A stretch of DNA of 64,000 nt, from the sequence record MN850578.1. One strand, 5' to 3'. This document shows positions 54,861 through 63,282 of the stretch, one piece after another. The stretch's first letter is position 1, and each line of letters opens with the position of its first letter. The position numbers and the translations under genes are program-made. The notes under the pieces are model-generated. The model ran no database searches. It saw only the letters and a program-made list of their open reading frames with translations, and had not been told where the DNA came from. The stretch is from Escherichia phage nomo.

Positions 54861-55154
54861 TCAAGACTTTTTAGTCTTTCTTGGAGAGCTTTTTGTTGAT
54901 CTTTTCCTTTTGTGGTAGATTCCAAGTGCAGCGTTTTCTTGGGCGCACGTTTTAACAGTTCTCAGAGAAGAACTTTCAGCTTTAGGCAGGTTTAACTCCC
55001 ACCAACCGAGCCAGTAAAGTTCTGATTCCGACAGCTGCTCAGATTCAGCCTTCCGATACAATGATTGCATACCTCTAATGATGTCGTCCAGAGGTGTATC
55101 GAATACAAAAGCTGTCTTATCGAATTTCTCTTTTACAGGTCTCTTAGCCATCAA
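54861..55154 (-). CDS. hypothetical basic protein (97 aa)
   Basis: ORF; Lys/Arg-rich C-terminus. Confidence 0.4.
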   Translation of the reverse strand: MMAKRPVKEKFDKTAFVFDTPLDDIIRGMQSLYRKAESEQLSESELYWLGWWELNLPKAESSSLRTVKTCAQENAALGIYHKRKRSTKSSPRKTKKS

Positions 55155-55590
55155 GGTAACCCTCTATCCACGAAAAGTCAGTCTTCCATTCTGGAACTTT
55201 ACTAAGCTCACGCCACTCTGCAAAGCAGTCTCGGTAATACGCCTCTGCCATACTCTTGGTGATCTTATTCACCTTAGCCAACTGATTAACTGCCTGAGCA
55301 TACTTTCCACGGATATTTGCTAACCCAGGATGCACCGATGTGTGACAATCCGGGCACAGTGCTATCAGTCCGACAAGCCGGATCACTCCCTCTTCGAAAG
55401 TGTAAAGTTCATGACACTCCACTGGGTGTTTGCTGCCTTTACCGCCGCACACCTCACAAGTGTAGTTGGCTTCTCTATAGCACTTCTTACGTATCTTATC
55501 CCACTCACTCTTCTTCACAGCGTTTCGGAGGTTATTATACCAAGCTGTTTCTGGGATCAGTTGCACAATAAGCCTGCGTTCAGACTTCAT
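55144..55590 (-). CDS. zinc-finger protein, possible HNH-type nuclease; start uncertain (55590 or 55659)
   Basis: CEVCGG...H...CPDCH pattern. Confidence 0.3.
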   Translation of the reverse strand: MKSERRLIVQLIPETAWYNNLRNAVKKSEWDKIRKKCYREANYTCEVCGGKGSKHPVECHELYTFEEGVIRLVGLIALCPDCHTSVHPGLANIRGKYAQAVNQLAKVNKITKSMAEAYYRDCFAEWRELSKVPEWKTDFSWIEGYLDG

Positions 55591-55618
55591 TAAACGTCCG
55601 TCTTCCACGTGTTCTCTC

Positions 55619-55825
55619 TCATTCAAAGAAATGGGTGCGAGGGCAGGAACCTGCCTCACCTTGTTTCACAAGCTCGTAGAGCTCACCTTGACTTGTCTCA
55701 TAAAGGCAAATACGTTTACCATTGTCCCGATATACATCGACAAGATACGCTGTTTCACCTGCAAACACGACACCACAGGACAGACATGCTACCATGAACA
55801 AAATTGCCAACAGAAAATCTTTCAT
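55619..55825 (-). CDS. small secreted protein or lipoprotein (68 aa) downstream of endolysin
   Basis: Signal peptide MKDFLLAILFMVACLSCGVVFAG with possible lipobox. Confidence 0.4.
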   Translation of the reverse strand: MKDFLLAILFMVACLSCGVVFAGETAYLVDVYRDNGKRICLYETSQGELYELVKQGEAGSCPRTHFFE

Positions 55826-56482: not shown

Positions 56483-57766
56483 TCATTCAAGCACCTCCCA
56501 AGTGTCTGGGTTAACATTTCGGACGCAGATACCGACAGGGAATTGGTAGTTGTTGTCTTCTGTCCTTGCTTGGTATTTGAAGGTGACAAACTTGCCGATC
56601 ATTTCCTGCATCCTGTCATAGCTACGCTCCTCGTGCGTGCCTTTCATCTTCATTTTAACAACAACACCTTCCTTGTCAACACAGATAAGAACACCTTCAT
56701 CATTCTTATCTTTCTCAACGTCAATAACTTTCACCTCTGCGTCGTTGAACTTTTTCCATTTCAATGCTTCAGATGTTCGCTGACCATACTCATATTTACC
56801 GCAGAAATTACGCATGATAGTACCTTCATATCCTTCGGACATGAATATACCAACAGATTCTTCGCAATGATCAACTGTGTACGCAAGCTCTGCGTCAACA
56901 ACCTTGATATGATCAAGCATCAGAGTGGTAACGGTATCCTCTGCATCCATAAGATCCTTGCAGCGTCCAGACTCTGTTTCTGGATCCCACCACACCTTGT
57001 CGCTAGGAATATCAAAAATGTGATACTCCAGATCGTAGCTACAGTATCCACCGTAACGCAAATCATCACGAACAGGCTCAACATCGACAGGAATATCTAC
57101 CTTGTTGAAGTTTTTGTATGTTGATAAGCCTGCCTTAATTGCTGCATGACGGCGTTTTTTATCTGCCTCATAGTCTTTATCGATCTCGGCCTGAATCTCT
57201 TCCTGTGTGCGCCACCGTTTAGCAAGAGACACTATTTTCTGCAAAGGAAGACCATGAATGTATAGTTCCCCATCAAGTTGTTTAATCCCAGTGGTAGAAT
57301 GGAAAGAACGAAGTTGCTCTAAAAGCTTTCCTTGAATAGGGTAGGACTTATTACCACGGGAAATAAATTTAGGCTCACCATTTTGGAAAACAACAAGCAG
57401 ACGAAGGCCATCTAACTTACGCAAGATCCAGCAAGGTAATTTAAGTGCCTTGCCACGCTTCAGGTAGTCATGCACCAGCATAGGTAAAAGATCAACACCC
57501 TGCTCGCAATCTTCCATGTTTTCAACATACCCCAGACGGACTTGTTTTTCCCACTTGCTGATAGCCTCAAGCTCGGCCTGTTGCTCAGCTGTAGTCTCGT
57601 TGGCACGACCTACGTTTTTAGGTGTACATACCGTCTCTTTGTACTGCAATTTACCGTCAAGCTTGCCAAACTCTACGATAACCTTTTCGCCATCAGTGAA
57701 TACTTTCCACTGTTGGTAGCTGCCATCTTTGTTCAGTGCGTACAGTGTTGTTTTGATTTGATGCAT
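56483..57766 (-). CDS. ATP-dependent DNA ligase
   Basis: Nucleotidyltransferase motif I KLDGLR, motif III DGELYIHG, motif IV EGTIMR, motif V LKWKK. Confidence 0.7.
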   Translation of the reverse strand: MHQIKTTLYALNKDGSYQQWKVFTDGEKVIVEFGKLDGKLQYKETVCTPKNVGRANETTAEQQAELEAISKWEKQVRLGYVENMEDCEQGVDLLPMLVHDYLKRGKALKLPCWILRKLDGLRLLVVFQNGEPKFISRGNKSYPIQGKLLEQLRSFHSTTGIKQLDGELYIHGLPLQKIVSLAKRWRTQEEIQAEIDKDYEADKKRRHAAIKAGLSTYKNFNKVDIPVDVEPVRDDLRYGGYCSYDLEYHIFDIPSDKVWWDPETESGRCKDLMDAEDTVTTLMLDHIKVVDAELAYTVDHCEESVGIFMSEGYEGTIMRNFCGKYEYGQRTSEALKWKKFNDAEVKVIDVEKDKNDEGVLICVDKEGVVVKMKMKGTHEERSYDRMQEMIGKFVTFKYQARTEDNNYQFPVGICVRNVNPDTWEVLE

Positions 57767-58035: not shown

Positions 58036-58330
58036 TGCAGTCCTCCTTCTGTAGTAGGTCTTTTATAGGATAAACAAGTAAGTGTGGATCGGAATAACGT
58101 ATAGTCCTATTCTGCCACACTATGAACTTTATTACAACCAAATTTACAATATCTTTATCACCATGTAGCCCAACACACACATTTGTCCATATTTTGTGGT
58201 TGAAGATCTTGCTATCGATGTAGATTTTAGTGTCAAACTTATCTTCCATTCTACCTATAAGTTTGATCAGCTCCTTCATCTGGTCGCCAAACACAGCATC
58301 TTTTTCAAGATCTCTGGAATGCTTGTACAT
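58022..58330 (-). CDS. hypothetical protein (102 aa)
   Basis: ORF in array. Confidence 0.4.
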   Translation of the reverse strand: MYKHSRDLEKDAVFGDQMKELIKLIGRMEDKFDTKIYIDSKIFNHKIWTNVCVGLHGDKDIVNLVVIKFIVWQNRTIRYSDPHLLVYPIKDLLQKEDCNAVI

Positions 58331-58392
58331 AACTAACTACCTCACTGCATACTTTCCATAATAAGTAAAGCCGGGTAATCCCGGCTATGTTG

Positions 58393-59106
58393 TTAAATAT
58401 ACTCTGTTACATCCTTGAAGCTCGAAGGCTTCATAATCTTACCTTTACTGTCAAGGAATATAATAACTTTATTACCGTTGTAGAACTCCTCTTTAGCAAC
58501 GAAACCTTCGTAGCGACCACCAAAACGACGCTCAAGATCTTCAATCTCTAACTCTATGAGCAATTCAGTAGACATATCTGCACTGGCACCGTGAGAATAT
58601 CGTAGATGGTTGATCCGTGCAAACTTGCTGTCATTAGATTTGAGAACCTTCCGCATCATCCCACACACATCGCCGCGAAGCTGGAACAGCAAAGCTGTTG
58701 ACAACTCCGCTAAGCGGTAAGCTGACGCTCTTTGCTTGGATGTGTTTTTCGCAGCGATCAGTGTATCATAGAACTCACCGATCTTGAACTTAAGACCTCG
58801 TGGATTATCAAACAGGTTTGACCACTTTTCGTGATTATCATTAACAAGATAAGCGGCATAACTTGTGACAACGTGAAGATCGCAGGCCTCTTTTAGCAGG
58901 TGATCTCCACCATCACCTTTCTCCAGCTCTTCCAAAACCTCATTGAACTCTTCCTCAATGAAGCTAAGCTGTAATTCGAATGGTGTGTATGATTTTTTCA
59001 CTTTAGCTGCCACACGGTTCCAGTTTTCCACCCAGTTGGCAGACCAAAGGTAGTTTTCAGGCTGAGACAGTTTTTCCAGGTTGTCGATCAGTTTAGTATT
59101 CAGCAT
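58393..59106 (-). CDS. MazG-like nucleotide pyrophosphohydrolase (putative)
   Basis: EEEFNEVLEELEKGD...EACDLHVV resembles MazG EExxE...D motif region. Confidence 0.4.
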   Translation of the reverse strand: MLNTKLIDNLEKLSQPENYLWSANWVENWNRVAAKVKKSYTPFELQLSFIEEEFNEVLEELEKGDGGDHLLKEACDLHVVTSYAAYLVNDNHEKWSNLFDNPRGLKFKIGEFYDTLIAAKNTSKQRASAYRLAELSTALLFQLRGDVCGMMRKVLKSNDSKFARINHLRYSHGASADMSTELLIELEIEDLERRFGGRYEGFVAKEEFYNGNKVIIFLDSKGKIMKPSSFKDVTEYI

Positions 59107-59119
59107 TAAAGGTCTCCTT

Positions 59120-59881
59120 TTAAAGTTCCATAAAGTTTTCTACGGTCTCAATGAATGTTTTATCAGAGAAAGCGTCAACCGCCCCGTTAAACCAAACCGG
59201 GATGCCGCGATCCTCGTACTGGTAAATATCACTACGTGAAATGCCATTCTCCTCTAGATGCTGTGAGTCGTATTTGTTAACGATCAGCAGTTTGGTGCCC
59301 TTATTGCAGGCAGGGAATAGCTCCCAGTTAAAATTGATAACTGTGTTGGAACACCCTACAAGGATAACCATATCATTGCTTGTAAGAGAAGTCAACAGGT
59401 CATACATGTCTGTATACTTCGGAGCTACTTCTCCGAAGAACACCACATTAGGTTTAACCCAGGTATACTTTCCTGCATCTACCTCAGAGTATCCAATGTC
59501 CTTAATGACGTCACTTCCTTCATCGTCCTCATAGACTATTTCTGGCAAATACCCGTGAACATGTAAAATATCTTCATGTTTTACACCAGCACGCTCCAGC
59601 AAATCATCTACATTGGTGGTAAGGTTGATCACACGACCAGACCAGCGGGAATACCACTCAGCGATCCGAAGATGTGCAAGGTTAGGCTCAACACCGCCTA
59701 GAGCTACACGACGTGCATTGTAAAAGTCATGCACCTTGTAGTAGTTCTTGGCAAAGGTGTGGATGTTGCACACCTCATCGATGCTGAAATTCTCCCACAT
59801 TGCAGTGCTACCAGATCGGAAAGTGGGAATACCAGATTCAGCGCTCAAACCAGCACCGGAGATAATAATCAGTCGTCGCAT
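59120..59881 (-). CDS. Sir2-like (sirtuin-fold) NAD-binding protein lacking the canonical zinc ribbon
   Basis: GAGLSAESGIPTFR matches sirtuin NAD-binding signature; no CxxC...CxxC module seen. Confidence 0.65.
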   Translation of the reverse strand: MRRLIIISGAGLSAESGIPTFRSGSTAMWENFSIDEVCNIHTFAKNYYKVHDFYNARRVALGGVEPNLAHLRIAEWYSRWSGRVINLTTNVDDLLERAGVKHEDILHVHGYLPEIVYEDDEGSDVIKDIGYSEVDAGKYTWVKPNVVFFGEVAPKYTDMYDLLTSLTSNDMVILVGCSNTVINFNWELFPACNKGTKLLIVNKYDSQHLEENGISRSDIYQYEDRGIPVWFNGAVDAFSDKTFIETVENFMEL

Positions 59882-59889
59882 AAGTGTCC

Positions 59890-60240
59890 TCAGTAGATGT
59901 TTTGTTTAATCTCTATTCCAAACTTTTTAAACGAGTCAGCTGCAAGCATGAATTTACGAGCCGCTGATGGGTTAGAAGTATGCACGAAAATCTTCACGTT
60001 GTCAACTACAGGGGGCTTACCAAATACAAATTTTTCCTCCAACATAGATAGGCAATCGTACCCTTCGAACAACTCTCCAAGGTCGTTGTCCATGTGCCAC
60101 TCAGAAACGCGTCTGTAGAGCTTTCCCCTATCGTTAATAAAATCTATAAACTCGGAGGAATTCTTTAGCCAAATAGCGTCGGGGAGCCCATAATTTGACG
60201 GATCTCTCAAGTCATCCAGCCACACAATCAACTTCTTCAT
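59890..60240 (-). CDS. hypothetical protein (116 aa)
   Basis: ORF between Sir2-like and ligase-like genes; ATGA overlap. Confidence 0.4.
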   Translation of the reverse strand: MKKLIVWLDDLRDPSNYGLPDAIWLKNSSEFIDFINDRGKLYRRVSEWHMDNDLGELFEGYDCLSMLEEKFVFGKPPVVDNVKIFVHTSNPSAARKFMLAADSFKKFGIEIKQNIY

Positions 60241-61172
60241 TGCATATAGTTCTCGTTGTGGAAATAGTAATCAAGTATCTCACGGCGTTCCTGCTCCAGG
60301 AGGCAGTTCCACACATCTTCTGTGTAATTGTTACGAATGAAGTTTACCATGCCGTAAAACTCTTCGTCAACACGTTTAAAGATATCATCATCCCAAATCT
60401 TCCAAGCTTTACCCCTCATTACGGCCTTCCGTGCCAGGTAGTATGGAGACTTGATCTTCAGCTGCAGGTCATAAGGGTAGTAAGGCTTACGGATCATATA
60501 CCCTTCGCCCCTTGTTTCTGCGGCTAATTCTTTTGCATAGCTGAACGGGATTTCACGCACAGTGTGAGGACGTTTTGCACCAAGGTATTTGGCAATCCCA
60601 TCTAAAGCTGCTTCTGGTAGCATTATTCCAGAATCATTATATCTGCAACCTATCAAATATGCGCCATGGTCTTCTTGAACAATATGCGGATCTGAAGGGT
60701 GACAAATTTCAAACATGAATGTCATGTTTTCATTGCCCATAACCTTCTTGATAAGATCTAAATTACCACATTGCTCTTGGATGGTTTCCTTTGCAAGGTT
60801 ACAATATGGAGAATCAAGAGACCCGGTTGTTGAGAACAATAGGTCACCTTTATGAGATGATACCACACCAAGGAATCCGTTCTTTTTCTCTACCGCAGTC
60901 ACAAGCTTATTGTCAGGCAGGTTGGTGGAGTTTTCTCCCAAGTTAAACACTTTTGTGAAGGGCCATGCCACAACATTTCCTTCATTACCTACAACAATGC
61001 CTCGGCACTCCAGTAAACGAGGGGACAAATGCCATAAATTGTTGTAAAATACTTTTCTAGCATATTTATAGATCTTTAACCCGAGATCTGGGTAATACCT
61101 ACTGGTTACAAGACCTTTGTCAACCAGGTCGTCTGCATTAAAATACTTCATTATACGTTCCTCATTTGTCAT
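60237..61172 (-). CDS. RNA-ligase-like nucleotidyltransferase (putative RNA repair ligase)
   Basis: Motif I-like EKKNG, motif IV-like EGYMIR, motif V-like LKIK; distinct from the DNA ligase at 56483. Confidence 0.5.
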   Translation of the reverse strand: MTNEERIMKYFNADDLVDKGLVTSRYYPDLGLKIYKYARKVFYNNLWHLSPRLLECRGIVVGNEGNVVAWPFTKVFNLGENSTNLPDNKLVTAVEKKNGFLGVVSSHKGDLLFSTTGSLDSPYCNLAKETIQEQCGNLDLIKKVMGNENMTFMFEICHPSDPHIVQEDHGAYLIGCRYNDSGIMLPEAALDGIAKYLGAKRPHTVREIPFSYAKELAAETRGEGYMIRKPYYPYDLQLKIKSPYYLARKAVMRGKAWKIWDDDIFKRVDEEFYGMVNFIRNNYTEDVWNCLLEQERREILDYYFHNENYMQ

Positions 61173-61272
61173 TTTGTCAGTCTATCCTGCCACACAAATA
61201 ACCTAGTGTCAACACTTGAAATTAACAAAACAGTTAGGTATACTACCGTTGAAATTAAAACGGAGGGTCACT

Positions 61273-61683
61273 ATGTCTAAAATGCTATATATCGTGCGTG
61301 GTCTACCAGGGTCTGGCAAATCAACACTGGCGAATGCGCTATCTTTAGAGGGTCTGTATCCACATTTTGAGAACGACATGTTCTGGTATGACGATGACGG
61401 CAATTACAACTGGGATGCAAGTAAAGTAACACTCGCAGCAAAATGGTGCAAAGATAACGTAGAAGATATGATGCGTATGGGATACGACCGTATCGTGGTA
61501 AGTAATACGTTTACAAAAGAAAAACATGTGCAGGAATATGTTGACATGGCAATCAGTCATGGGTATAGTTATACCGTGATCGTGGTTGAAAACCGCCACG
61601 GTAATAAAAGCATTCATGATGTTCCAGACAAGGTTGTGGATCGTATGGAACGCCAGCTTAAAAACTGCATTAAACTTAAATGA
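61273..61683 (+). CDS. P-loop kinase (polynucleotide kinase-like)
   Basis: Walker A GLPGSGKST near N-terminus; RBS ggaggg upstream of ATG 61273; small kinase-only protein. Confidence 0.55.
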   Translation: MSKMLYIVRGLPGSGKSTLANALSLEGLYPHFENDMFWYDDDGNYNWDASKVTLAAKWCKDNVEDMMRMGYDRIVVSNTFTKEKHVQEYVDMAISHGYSYTVIVVENRHGNKSIHDVPDKVVDRMERQLKNCIKLK

Positions 61684-61690
61684 GGAATGT

Positions 61691-62245
61691 ATGAAATACT
61701 TTGTAACAAGCGACACACACTTTCTCCACCAGCGGGTCATGGAGTTTGATTCATGTCAAAAACACAGATCTCAGTATGATCACAATCTTGACAGTATGAA
61801 TGCTGGAATCATCGCCGAGTGGAACTCTGTTGTGTCACCTGCAGACACTGTGTTCCACTTGGGAGATATTGCGTGCACTAATGATAAGAATATCAACAAC
61901 TTACTTCCAGATATTCTAAATATGTTGAACGGACATATTATTCTTGTTCGTGGCAACCATGACACAAGGACGACTGTCAGAATTATGAAAGAGTTCGGTC
62001 ATGAGGTTGTAGATTATTACGAGCTTCGCCACAACAAGAATTTGATCTGTATGAGCCATTACCAGTTTGCAAAGTGGAACAGAAAGCCTCACGGATCAGT
62101 CCAACTGTTCGGTCATGCTCACGGAACCACACAACAGTTGTTTGGCAGGCAGCTTGATGTCGGTTGGGATGTGTGGGGGAGACTCTTACCATTAGAAGAG
62201 GCATACCGTATTGCAATGAGTTTTGATATTGACAGCAGGGAGTAA
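61691..62245 (+). CDS. calcineurin-like metallophosphoesterase
   Basis: SDTHF, HLGDIA, RGNHD motifs of metallophosphoesterases; RBS gagga upstream of ATG 61691. Confidence 0.6.
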   Translation: MKYFVTSDTHFLHQRVMEFDSCQKHRSQYDHNLDSMNAGIIAEWNSVVSPADTVFHLGDIACTNDKNINNLLPDILNMLNGHIILVRGNHDTRTTVRIMKEFGHEVVDYYELRHNKNLICMSHYQFAKWNRKPHGSVQLFGHAHGTTQQLFGRQLDVGWDVWGRLLPLEEAYRIAMSFDIDSRE

Positions 62246-62292
62246 TCCCTGCTATTTTAAAGAAAATTGCCACACAAGGAGAATCAGGAGAT

Positions 62293-62643
62293 ATGAAAGA
62301 TGGGGATAAGCTGCTATATCTTAAAGTCCCCCTTGAAATACTATCTATGTCAAAAGTTTTGAATGACACAACTGGGGAGGTTGTTGTTCTTGACTTGTAT
62401 GACAAGATCGTATACTGCTACCTGCACAACTGGTATAAGCTTGGAGGAAATTCACGCTTCACACCAAGCACAAGGAAAATTGCAGCAGATGTTGGGATAA
62501 AGAAAACAAAAGCAGCAGCGTGCGTTAAAACTTTAGAATGTGCAGGAGTGGTTGAAACATCCACACAAGGGAGAGGTAAAAGATGCACATTTTCCAAAGT
62601 TTTGCCACCAGAAGAAGTTATTCGGATGTCAACAACTGGTTAG
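62293..62643 (+). CDS. putative winged-helix DNA-binding protein (116 aa)
   Basis: RBS aaggag; segment STRKIAADVGIKKTKAAACVKTLECAGVV resembles an HTH. Confidence 0.4.
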   Translation: MKDGDKLLYLKVPLEILSMSKVLNDTTGEVVVLDLYDKIVYCYLHNWYKLGGNSRFTPSTRKIAADVGIKKTKAAACVKTLECAGVVETSTQGRGKRCTFSKVLPPEEVIRMSTTG

Positions 62644-62699
62644 ACCAGTAAAAACTTAAATATCTGTACTATAAGGATTCGTATGTTTTATGTTCGCCA

Positions 62700-62890
62700 T
62701 GGAACGGATACTATTAACTGTCCGTCACGCGGACACATCTGCCCGTAATACGGACACTAACTGTCCGTGATACGGACACATAAAGAATATAACTAAAATA
62801 ACTAAATAATAAAAAATAAAAGATCTAGTACTTATGGTACTAAGTACATATACTTAACTTATGTAGAATATACTAGATCCTAAGTACCAT
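62700..62890. repeat. palindrome cluster: GTCCGT/ACGGAC dyads (e.g. tgtccgtgatacggaca), AT-rich spacer, and long dyad around agatctagtact...agtactagatc
   Basis: Inverted repeats read directly; intergenic. Confidence 0.55.
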
Positions 62891-63282
62891 GTTTTAAATT
62901 TATTACTTACTATGGGCAGTGTCGGCCCTTCATTGGCACTCGCCTACGAGGGGCGAGATGCCGGGCCTCCTTGGTGCACACAATAACAGAAGTTCATACA
63001 TGCAGGTCTGTTAACATGTGTGGGAGCGAAGCGATAGCGCAGGCCAAAGGCCGAGCACTGATGTGGACCACCGACGAAAGCTTGCCAGCGCCGTAAGGAG
63101 TCGGTTGAGAGTCTCCCGCGCGAGCTTGGATGAAGTTTATGTGTGGAAACTGACAAGAAGGCCCCTAAATCGCTCCACAGCTATATAAACTATACCAGGT
63201 AATGCAATCGCACCAGTTTGATAGAAAAGCTCGTTACAAAGCGATACAGTGAGTTTTTCTATAACTTGAAGAGGAGGCAGCT

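Follow-up and report, generated by a model that had tools for sequence, protein, structure and literature searches.

We analysed a stretch of 64,000 nucleotides from Escherichia phage nomo (sequence record MN850578.1; the window), in which six genes within 58393-62245 encode a kinase, a metallophosphoesterase, an RNA ligase, a sirtuin, a protein with a cREC domain and a MazG-like protein. The esterase, the ligase and the kinase form the conserved core of this group, cREC follows the ligase, and the sirtuin is the component least tightly linked to the others. The triad is probably an RNA heal-and-seal system (probability about 0.6); this reading, put forward in an initial annotation of the DNA, is the one that the sequences support best. 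It is well supported by homology and by conserved gene linkage, from which we infer the enzymatic activities, the RNA substrate and a role in counter-defence.

The window is a segment of the genome of an rV5-like Vequintavirus: positions 58300-62700 are 99.9% identical to the Escherichia phages rV5_ev146, ime and phita32, and the interval is covered to 80% or more in 117 phage records. For the rV5-like group a computational prediction of this system already exists. Iyer, Burroughs, Anantharaman and Aravind (2022, Viruses 14:1977, PMC9503650, section 3.7.3) described this exact neighbourhood, with Escherichia phage V5 and Proteus phage Mydo as prototypes, and read it as a "type 2", sirtuin-centred RNA repair system that uses nicotinamide adenine dinucleotide (NAD). 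Their set comprises a sirtuin, a T4-like tRNA ligase, cREC, a nucleotide kinase, a MazG-family pyrophosphatase and, as a member that may be absent, a calcineurin-like esterase; it comes from the same phage group and shows no difference in gene content from the six genes of the window. The novelty implied by the initial annotation therefore falls away, the neighbourhood being in print as a prediction with phage V5 as a prototype. What the present survey adds to the type 2 description is the ranking of the components given above, with the triad as core, cREC after the ligase and the sirtuin as the loosest part.

Kinase, RNA ligase and metallophosphoesterase

Family calls were made with the curated cut-offs of Pfam. 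The four open reading frames (ORFs) named in the initial annotation, those of the sirtuin, the RNA ligase, the kinase and the esterase, all score above these cut-offs and have the positions, strands and folds that it gave them; its assignment of the 311-amino-acid (aa) protein to the covalent nucleotidyltransferases, and of the kinase to the polynucleotide rather than the nucleotide kinases, is borne out by the profile searches described below. The folds, the intact catalytic motifs, the packing of the genes into operons and their linkage across phage lineages are seen directly. Single-sequence searches of the ligase and the kinase against solved structures were uninformative, and family profiles were used in their place.

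The RNA ligase gene (60237-61172, minus strand; 311 aa) matches PF09511 (RNA_lig_T4_1) with 55.3 bits (cut-off 28.3; E=1.1e-14). It is separate, as had been noted, from the gene for an ATP-dependent DNA ligase, which is indeed present at 56483-57766. The ligase profile, comprising 31 relatives at ~45% identity, gave T4 Rnl1 as its best match among solved structures (2C5U, 9DO4; E about 1e-13) and no Trl1 entry at E<=1, and thereby assigns the protein to the covalent nucleotidyltransferase superfamily as an Rnl1-type member. Residues K96-x-N98-G99 (motif I), E223-G224 (motif IV) and K239/K241 (motif V) are invariant in the 31 relatives, and K96 aligns with the adenylylation lysine of T4 Rnl1, K99. 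The AlphaFold2 (AF2) model of the ligase has a predicted local distance difference test score (pLDDT) of 92.4, and a fold search returned Trl1-LIG, archaeal Rnl3 and T4 Rnl1 at the top, all at about 1e-11 to 1e-12. Because the three score alike in this search, the fold is certain and the sub-type is not; for the same reason the fold search leaves the preference for 2'-phosphate ends unsettled.

The kinase gene (61273-61683, plus strand; 136 aa) matches AAA_33 (PF13671; E=1e-10) and phrog_505, "polynucleotide kinase" (E=4.7e-10). Its family is very large, with at least 7,989 relatives, and consists of stand-alone proteins of ~130 aa; the GxxGxGKS P-loop and D35 are invariant. When its profile was ranked against the PDB, RNA-repair polynucleotide kinases came first among the full-length matches, with Capnocytophaga Pnkp1 at 2.4e-5, T4 Pnk at 7e-5 and C. 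thermocellum Pnk at 3e-4, followed by tRNA(Sec) kinase (PSTK). Most nucleotide kinases scored above 0.01, the exception being a partial P-loop match to adenylate kinase 9. Alignment of the profile with residues 1-108 of T4 Pnk by hhalign gave a probability of 96.9% (E=1.8e-10) and placed the invariant D35 on D35 of T4 Pnk, which we take to be its essential general-base residue. By these comparisons the kinase is nearer to the polynucleotide kinases (the T4 Pnk / CthPnk clade) than to the nucleotide kinases. At 136 aa it corresponds to the kinase domain alone, with no C-terminal DxDxT (HAD) 3'-phosphatase domain.

The metallophosphoesterase gene (61691-62245, plus strand; 184 aa) matches Metallophos_2 / Metallophos at E about 1e-6, and its five metal-binding motifs (D8, H10, G58-D59, G88-N89-H90, H123, G141-H142-x-H144) are invariant in 40 relatives. 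A profile search found Aquifex Aq_1665 (1XM7) as the nearest solved relative (E=3.4e-28), followed by GpdQ, YfcE, MJ0936 and Rv0805. The AF2 model (pLDDT 94.0) led to 1XM7, MJ0936 and Mre11 in a fold search, with no characterised RNA-end enzyme among the matches. Profile and model alike point to a small dinuclear metallophosphoesterase of the Aq_1665 type.

From homology and conserved linkage, the 5'-kinase, the phosphoesterase and the ligase would work as follows. A host ribonuclease breaks RNA and leaves a 2',3'-cyclic phosphate at one end and a 5'-OH at the other; the Pnk-like kinase would phosphorylate the 5'-OH, the metallophosphoesterase and/or cREC would open and remove the cyclic or 3' phosphate, and the Rnl1-type ligase, by way of a K96-AMP intermediate, would seal the break. 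The target is likely tRNA cut by host anticodon nucleases. In T4, tRNA repair by Pnkp and Rnl1 counters the anticodon nuclease PrrC. The predicted system shares with T4 an Rnl1-type ligase, a Pnk-type 5'-kinase and the logic of healing before sealing; here, however, the kinase is unfused and has no DxDxT (HAD) phosphatase, in whose place stand the metallophosphoesterase and cREC, and the ligase is not an RnlA ortholog and has a much shorter C-terminal domain than T4 Rnl1.

Bacterial Pnkp/Hen1 (for example, C. thermocellum Pnkp) likewise combines kinase, metallophosphoesterase and ligase, and CthPnk is among the matches of the window's kinase family. The three activities are carried by a single polypeptide there and by three here; moreover, the esterase of the window is of the Aq_1665/MJ0936 type and not lambda-phosphatase-like, the ligase is of the Rnl1 type, and no gene for a Hen1-like methyltransferase was found among the ORFs and the Pfam/phrog matches in 58.3-62.7 kb. 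The phosphatase of bacterial Pnkp belongs to the calcineurin-type superfamily (PMC2190708), and a calcineurin-type phosphatase, which the initial annotation had pointed out as an oddity, is thus the norm in that system.

Conservation of the module across phages

The neighbourhood was compared in nine sampled loci, from ESCO13 (Phapecoctavirus), 2L372X (Plateaulakevirus), PaP1 (Pakpunavirus), Achelous (Thalassavirus), VLCpiM5a (Mydovirus) and four metagenomic contigs; two of the four contigs have a Pakpunavirus-like layout, and the nine loci represent about six phage lineages. In all of them (9/9), no more than about 1.5 kb separates the esterase, ligase and kinase genes from each other, usually with the kinase immediately after the ligase, and their products are 31-48% identical to those of the window. 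Since the three genes occur together in every sampled locus, the split triad is a common conserved phage module, and with the ligase family found in 664 phage records it does not have the unusual architecture that the initial annotation ascribed to it. The divergent transcription that had been singled out as a feature of the module fares no better. In Mydovirus, the sister genus, all genes are co-directional, in the order esterase ... ligase-cREC-kinase-x-sirtuin-DNA ligase ... MazG, and the layout of rV5-like phages is therefore a local rearrangement of the kinase-esterase pair that is special to Vequintavirus.

Nor are the four genes named at first strictly adjacent, because a gene for the 116-aa cREC protein (59890-60240, minus strand) lies between those of the sirtuin and the ligase. 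While the identities of the four stood, the set was incomplete: two members of the leftward operon, cREC and the MazG-like gene, had been missed. The cREC protein matches PF20274, cREC_REC ("cyclic-phosphate processing receiver domain"), with 55.7 bits (cut-off 27; E=8.3e-15). A receiver-like acidic pattern, DD...DxD...T/S...K, is conserved in its relatives, and the motifs WxDDxR, DNDLG, HTSNP and KFMLA are conserved in three cREC sequences of 54-64% identity. The subfamily occurs in 347 phage records, standing beside the ligase in every listed row that carries annotation and in every locus inspected, and it adjoins the ligase in both loci outside the window that possess it. Iyer and colleagues had defined the domain, and its association with RNA ligases, in a 2021 paper on jumbo phages (PMC7824862), and they call it experimentally uncharacterised; it has been described in RNA-repair and ADP-ribose contexts only (PMC9503650). 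Public records often call the cREC gene "RNA ligase 1 and tail attachment protein", just as they often call the kinase-only protein "3'-phosphatase, 5'-polynucleotide kinase"; such mislabels of the two genes are spreading.

The MazG-like gene (58393-59106, minus strand; 237 aa) matches phrog_671, "nucleotide pyrophosphohydrolase" (E=5.7e-22), and weakly the Pfam family PRA-PH (E=0.089). The protein is an all-alpha pyrophosphohydrolase by type, and an EExxE...ExxD motif is legible in its translation. In Mydovirus and ESCO13, a homologue is encoded at 1-3 kb from the ligase.

Genes of NAD salvage, for a ribose-phosphate pyrophosphokinase and for NAMPT/NAPRTase, were seen within 1-3 kb past the ligase-kinase pair in the Pakpunavirus-like and Thalassavirus loci, at 6322-9148 in L005 (PaP1), 8322-10912 in L006 (Achelous), 7904-9823 in L014 and 7565-11431 in L016, and a Macro-domain gene also lies past the pair in one of these. 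Together with the sirtuin of Vequintavirinae, these neighbours form a recurring link of the RNA ligase module with NAD metabolism. The annotation of a close relative of the window's phage contains no NAD-salvage, Tpt1, 2H, Nudix, Macro or RtcB gene.

Sirtuin, side branch and alternative readings

The sirtuin gene (59120-59881, minus strand; 253 aa) matches PF02146 with 95.3 bits (cut-off 24; E=5.5e-27) and phrog_2162 at E=3e-109, and among solved structures E. coli CobB (1S5P) and SIRT5 come closest to it (E about 5e-21). Aligned with CobB, the segments GAGLSAESGIPTFR, TTNVDD and HVHG retain the GAGxS, N/D and catalytic His motifs, and the substrate-backbone motif FGE is retained as well. The Cys-rich segment of CobB corresponds to a Cys-free stretch both in the window's sirtuin and in three relatives of its clade, which confirms that the zinc ribbon is absent. 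The marks of the clade are this loss, the change of TQNID to TTNVD and a conserved C-terminal extension. Scores against equivalog models are low, at 102.7 bits for prot_deacyl_CobB (cut-off 320) and 122.4 for the best-scoring NCBIfam model, a deacylase subfamily (cut-off 243). We class the protein as a sirtuin without a zinc ribbon and with a relationship to class III. A role as an NADase of the defence or superinfection-exclusion type was considered and rejected: no PADLOC family, the models for Thoeris ThsA, DSR and SIR2-HerA included, matched the sirtuin at E<=0.01, and its nearest relatives are CobB and SIRT5.

In the published NAD-dependent side branch (PMC9503650), cREC would open the cyclic phosphate to a 2'-phosphate; the sirtuin would move ADP-ribose from NAD+ onto the 2'-phosphate, removing the phosphate as Tpt1/KptA does; and the part of the esterases would be to open the cyclic phosphate or else to dispose of the ADP-ribose cyclic-phosphate by-product. 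If this proposal holds, the module would parallel the tRNA splicing pathway of fungi and plants, Trl1 and Tpt1, in having cyclic phosphodiesterase and kinase activities, a ligase that belongs to the same Pfam family and an NAD-dependent remover of 2'-phosphate. Here cREC would replace the 2H phosphodiesterase and the sirtuin would replace Tpt1/KptA, an enzyme of the ADP-ribosyltransferase (ART) fold; no member of the 2H cyclic phosphodiesterase or Tpt1/KptA families is found among the module proteins. Trl1-LIG is among the top structural matches of the window's ligase, whereas the sequence profile of the ligase finds T4 Rnl1 and not Trl1. The difference bears on the side branch, as Trl1 prefers 2'-phosphate ends, through arginines of its C-terminal domain, and T4 Rnl1 does not join such ends (PMC12440814). 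Because T4 Rnl1 rejects 2'-phosphate, a Tpt1-like step is not obviously needed if the ligase is T4 Rnl1-like. A link of the sirtuin to RNA repair, as the initial annotation had suggested, is plausible; it seems doubtful to us that the sirtuin is a working part of the heal-and-seal module, and a shade more doubtful that this zinc-less protein is a functional analogue of Tpt1/KptA that strips 2'-phosphate from RNA with NAD+ after cREC has acted.

Besides the doubtful need for a Tpt1-like step, several findings weigh against the heal-and-seal reading. In the PDB profile search the kinase matched polynucleotide kinases with modest scores (E 2e-5 to 3e-4). The nearest solved relative of the esterase, Aq_1665, is functionally uncharacterised, the relatives next in line are phosphodiesterases and nucleases of a generic kind, and neither lambda-phosphatase nor the CthPnkp phosphatase is among the listed profile and fold matches of the esterase. 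The ligase reaches 38.7 bits against the T4 RnlA equivalog TIGR02308 (cut-off 242) and is not an ortholog, and T4-like tRNA specificity is not to be assumed, because the domain that follows its catalytic domain has ~65 residues in four helices, compared with ~120 aa for a T4-like tRNA-binding domain. A literature search found no experimental study of the six proteins. Finally, the sirtuin adjoins the ligase in Vequintavirinae only: in phi92 it lies ~30 kb from the ligase, in ESCO5 it is among unrelated genes of unknown function, and in one sampled T5-like locus no RNA ligase was detected near it.

The loose attachment of the sirtuin is also part of the case for its acting outside RNA repair, as a CobB-like NAD-dependent lysine deacylase or a protein ADP-ribosyltransferase that would reprogram host or phage proteins, and that merely shares an early or nucleic-acid-metabolism gene block with the triad. 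We regard this, the main rival reading of the sirtuin, as possible, though not as probable. It agrees with the protein deacylases CobB and SIRT5 being the best solved relatives, with the retention of the NAD loop, the N/D pair, the catalytic His and FGE, and with the wider distribution of the sirtuin clade, which occurs in 990 phage records (664 for the ligase family) and in 287 Salmonella-phage records, the listed rows being T5-like, as against 14 with the ligase. It agrees less well with the TTNVD, zinc-ribbon and C-terminal peculiarities of the clade, with scores far below every CobB equivalog cut-off, and with the company that the sirtuin keeps. In Vequintavirinae it stands beside ligase, cREC and kinase, and in the T5-like phage FFH1 (L011, 4001-5491) a sirtuin of the same clade (58% identity) has after it a HAD_SAK_2 "Swiss Army Knife RNA repair" phosphatase of 168 aa (E=4e-20). 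The HAD_SAK_2 neighbour is a second, independent link of the sirtuin to RNA-end chemistry, so that this most loosely attached component nevertheless stands beside RNA-end enzymes in two unrelated contexts. The public record mislabels the HAD_SAK_2 protein of FFH1 as a second Sir2.

For the triad itself, it is quite improbable that the kinase and the esterase heal DNA ends for the neighbouring DNA ligase in the manner of PNKP, the Rnl1-like protein having another role. T4 Pnk acts on DNA too, and PNKP heals DNA ends in eukaryotic repair. In 8/9 sampled loci and in the window, the triad has a gene for an ATP-dependent DNA ligase at a distance of 1-4 kb, and the esterase has weak matches to Mre11-type folds and to PdeM, a "ligase-associated DNA damage response endonuclease" (E=2.6e-4, well short of the cut-off). 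The proximity of the DNA ligase is, however, explained equally well by a general nucleic-acid-metabolism gene block; the constant immediate neighbour of the kinase is the RNA-type ligase and not the DNA ligase; and cREC, known from RNA-repair and ADP-ribose contexts (PMC9503650), lies between ligase and kinase in Mydovirus. That the Rnl1-like protein is mainly a tail-fibre attachment factor, as in the second activity of T4 gp63, is hardly credible: the idea, stated in many database annotations, comes solely from annotation inherited from T4 gp63 (for example, "RNA ligase and tail fiber protein attachment catalyst"), whereas the location of the gene is an early/metabolic block, in tight linkage with kinase and esterase and not among tail genes, its catalytic motifs are invariant across the 31 relatives at about 45% identity, and its RnlA score (38.7 vs 242 bits) is not that of an ortholog.

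Cleavage of tRNA is a widespread bacterial defence, used by PrrC, RloC, PARIS and OLD-family nucleases. To our knowledge, repair of such damage by a phage has been demonstrated essentially only for T4. RNA healing and sealing by the triad would bear on this question, since hundreds of phage genomes carry the triad, among them those of the therapeutic-candidate rV5-like, phi92-like and PaP1-like groups. The triad is a good and simple target for asking how widely tRNA repair serves as counter-defence. Were the branch of sirtuin and cREC real, RNA repair would gain two new enzyme activities, an RNA-directed activity new to the sirtuin fold and the first activity for the cREC domain, and rV5-like phages would possess a replica of the fungal Trl1-Tpt1 pathway that is fully split and non-homologous. 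As a discovery the locus adds little, given that public records annotate the genes and that the prediction at the level of the system is in print; its residual value is that of a clean experimental target for two predicted enzyme activities.

Gene layout and neighbouring features

The leftward genes are closely packed, with a 4-nt overlap of the ligase stop and the cREC start, 8 nt between cREC and sirtuin and 13 nt between sirtuin and the MazG-like gene. A G+C-rich hairpin at 58369-58386, just past the MazG-like gene, has a 7 bp stem with 6 G-C pairs and is terminator-like on both strands by consensus match; it is likely the end of the leftward ligase-cREC-sirtuin-MazG transcription unit. In the rightward pair, kinase and esterase are 7 nt apart, and GGAGG sits 5 nt upstream of the kinase ATG. 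The two units are separated by a divergent intergenic region of 100 bp (61173-61272), which contains a promoter-like TTGAAA-17-TATACT at 61216-61244 (plus strand), again a consensus match; promoter-like sites in this region are not significantly enriched (18 vs 11.7 +/- 3.4 expected).

There is no tRNA gene inside the window; in close relatives a tRNA gene cluster begins ~2.5 kb beyond the esterase gene, just past the window's right end. An Rfam scan of 56-64 kb gave a single match, to the Listeria small RNA rli43 at 62736-62983, which is below threshold and at chance level (21.9 bits vs a gathering score of 100; E=0.055); it falls in a stretch of ~640 bp without long ORFs and is most likely due to chance. 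Three tandem repeats of ~22 bp, each with a palindromic core TGTCCG-N5-CGGACA, were observed at 62715-62781, directly downstream of a helix-turn-helix (HTH) / "replication initiation protein"-like gene (62293-62643, phrog_12838). GC skew changes sign at these repeats. Because they resemble iterons or operators, the site may be an origin or a regulatory site.

The DNA ligase at 56483-57766 shares 99.5% identity with its counterpart in phage Mangalyan and just 56% with the one in phage DrSchubert, whereas the genes that flank it are mostly 95-100% identical in both phages, and an HNH endonuclease gene lies nearby at 55144-55659. The pattern suggests allele replacement of the DNA ligase within the genus, with homing-endonuclease genes in the vicinity. 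Finally, 18-25 records named "Campylobacter phage" are at least 90-95% identical to these E. coli rV5-like phages, and their host label is probably wrong or the result of contamination.

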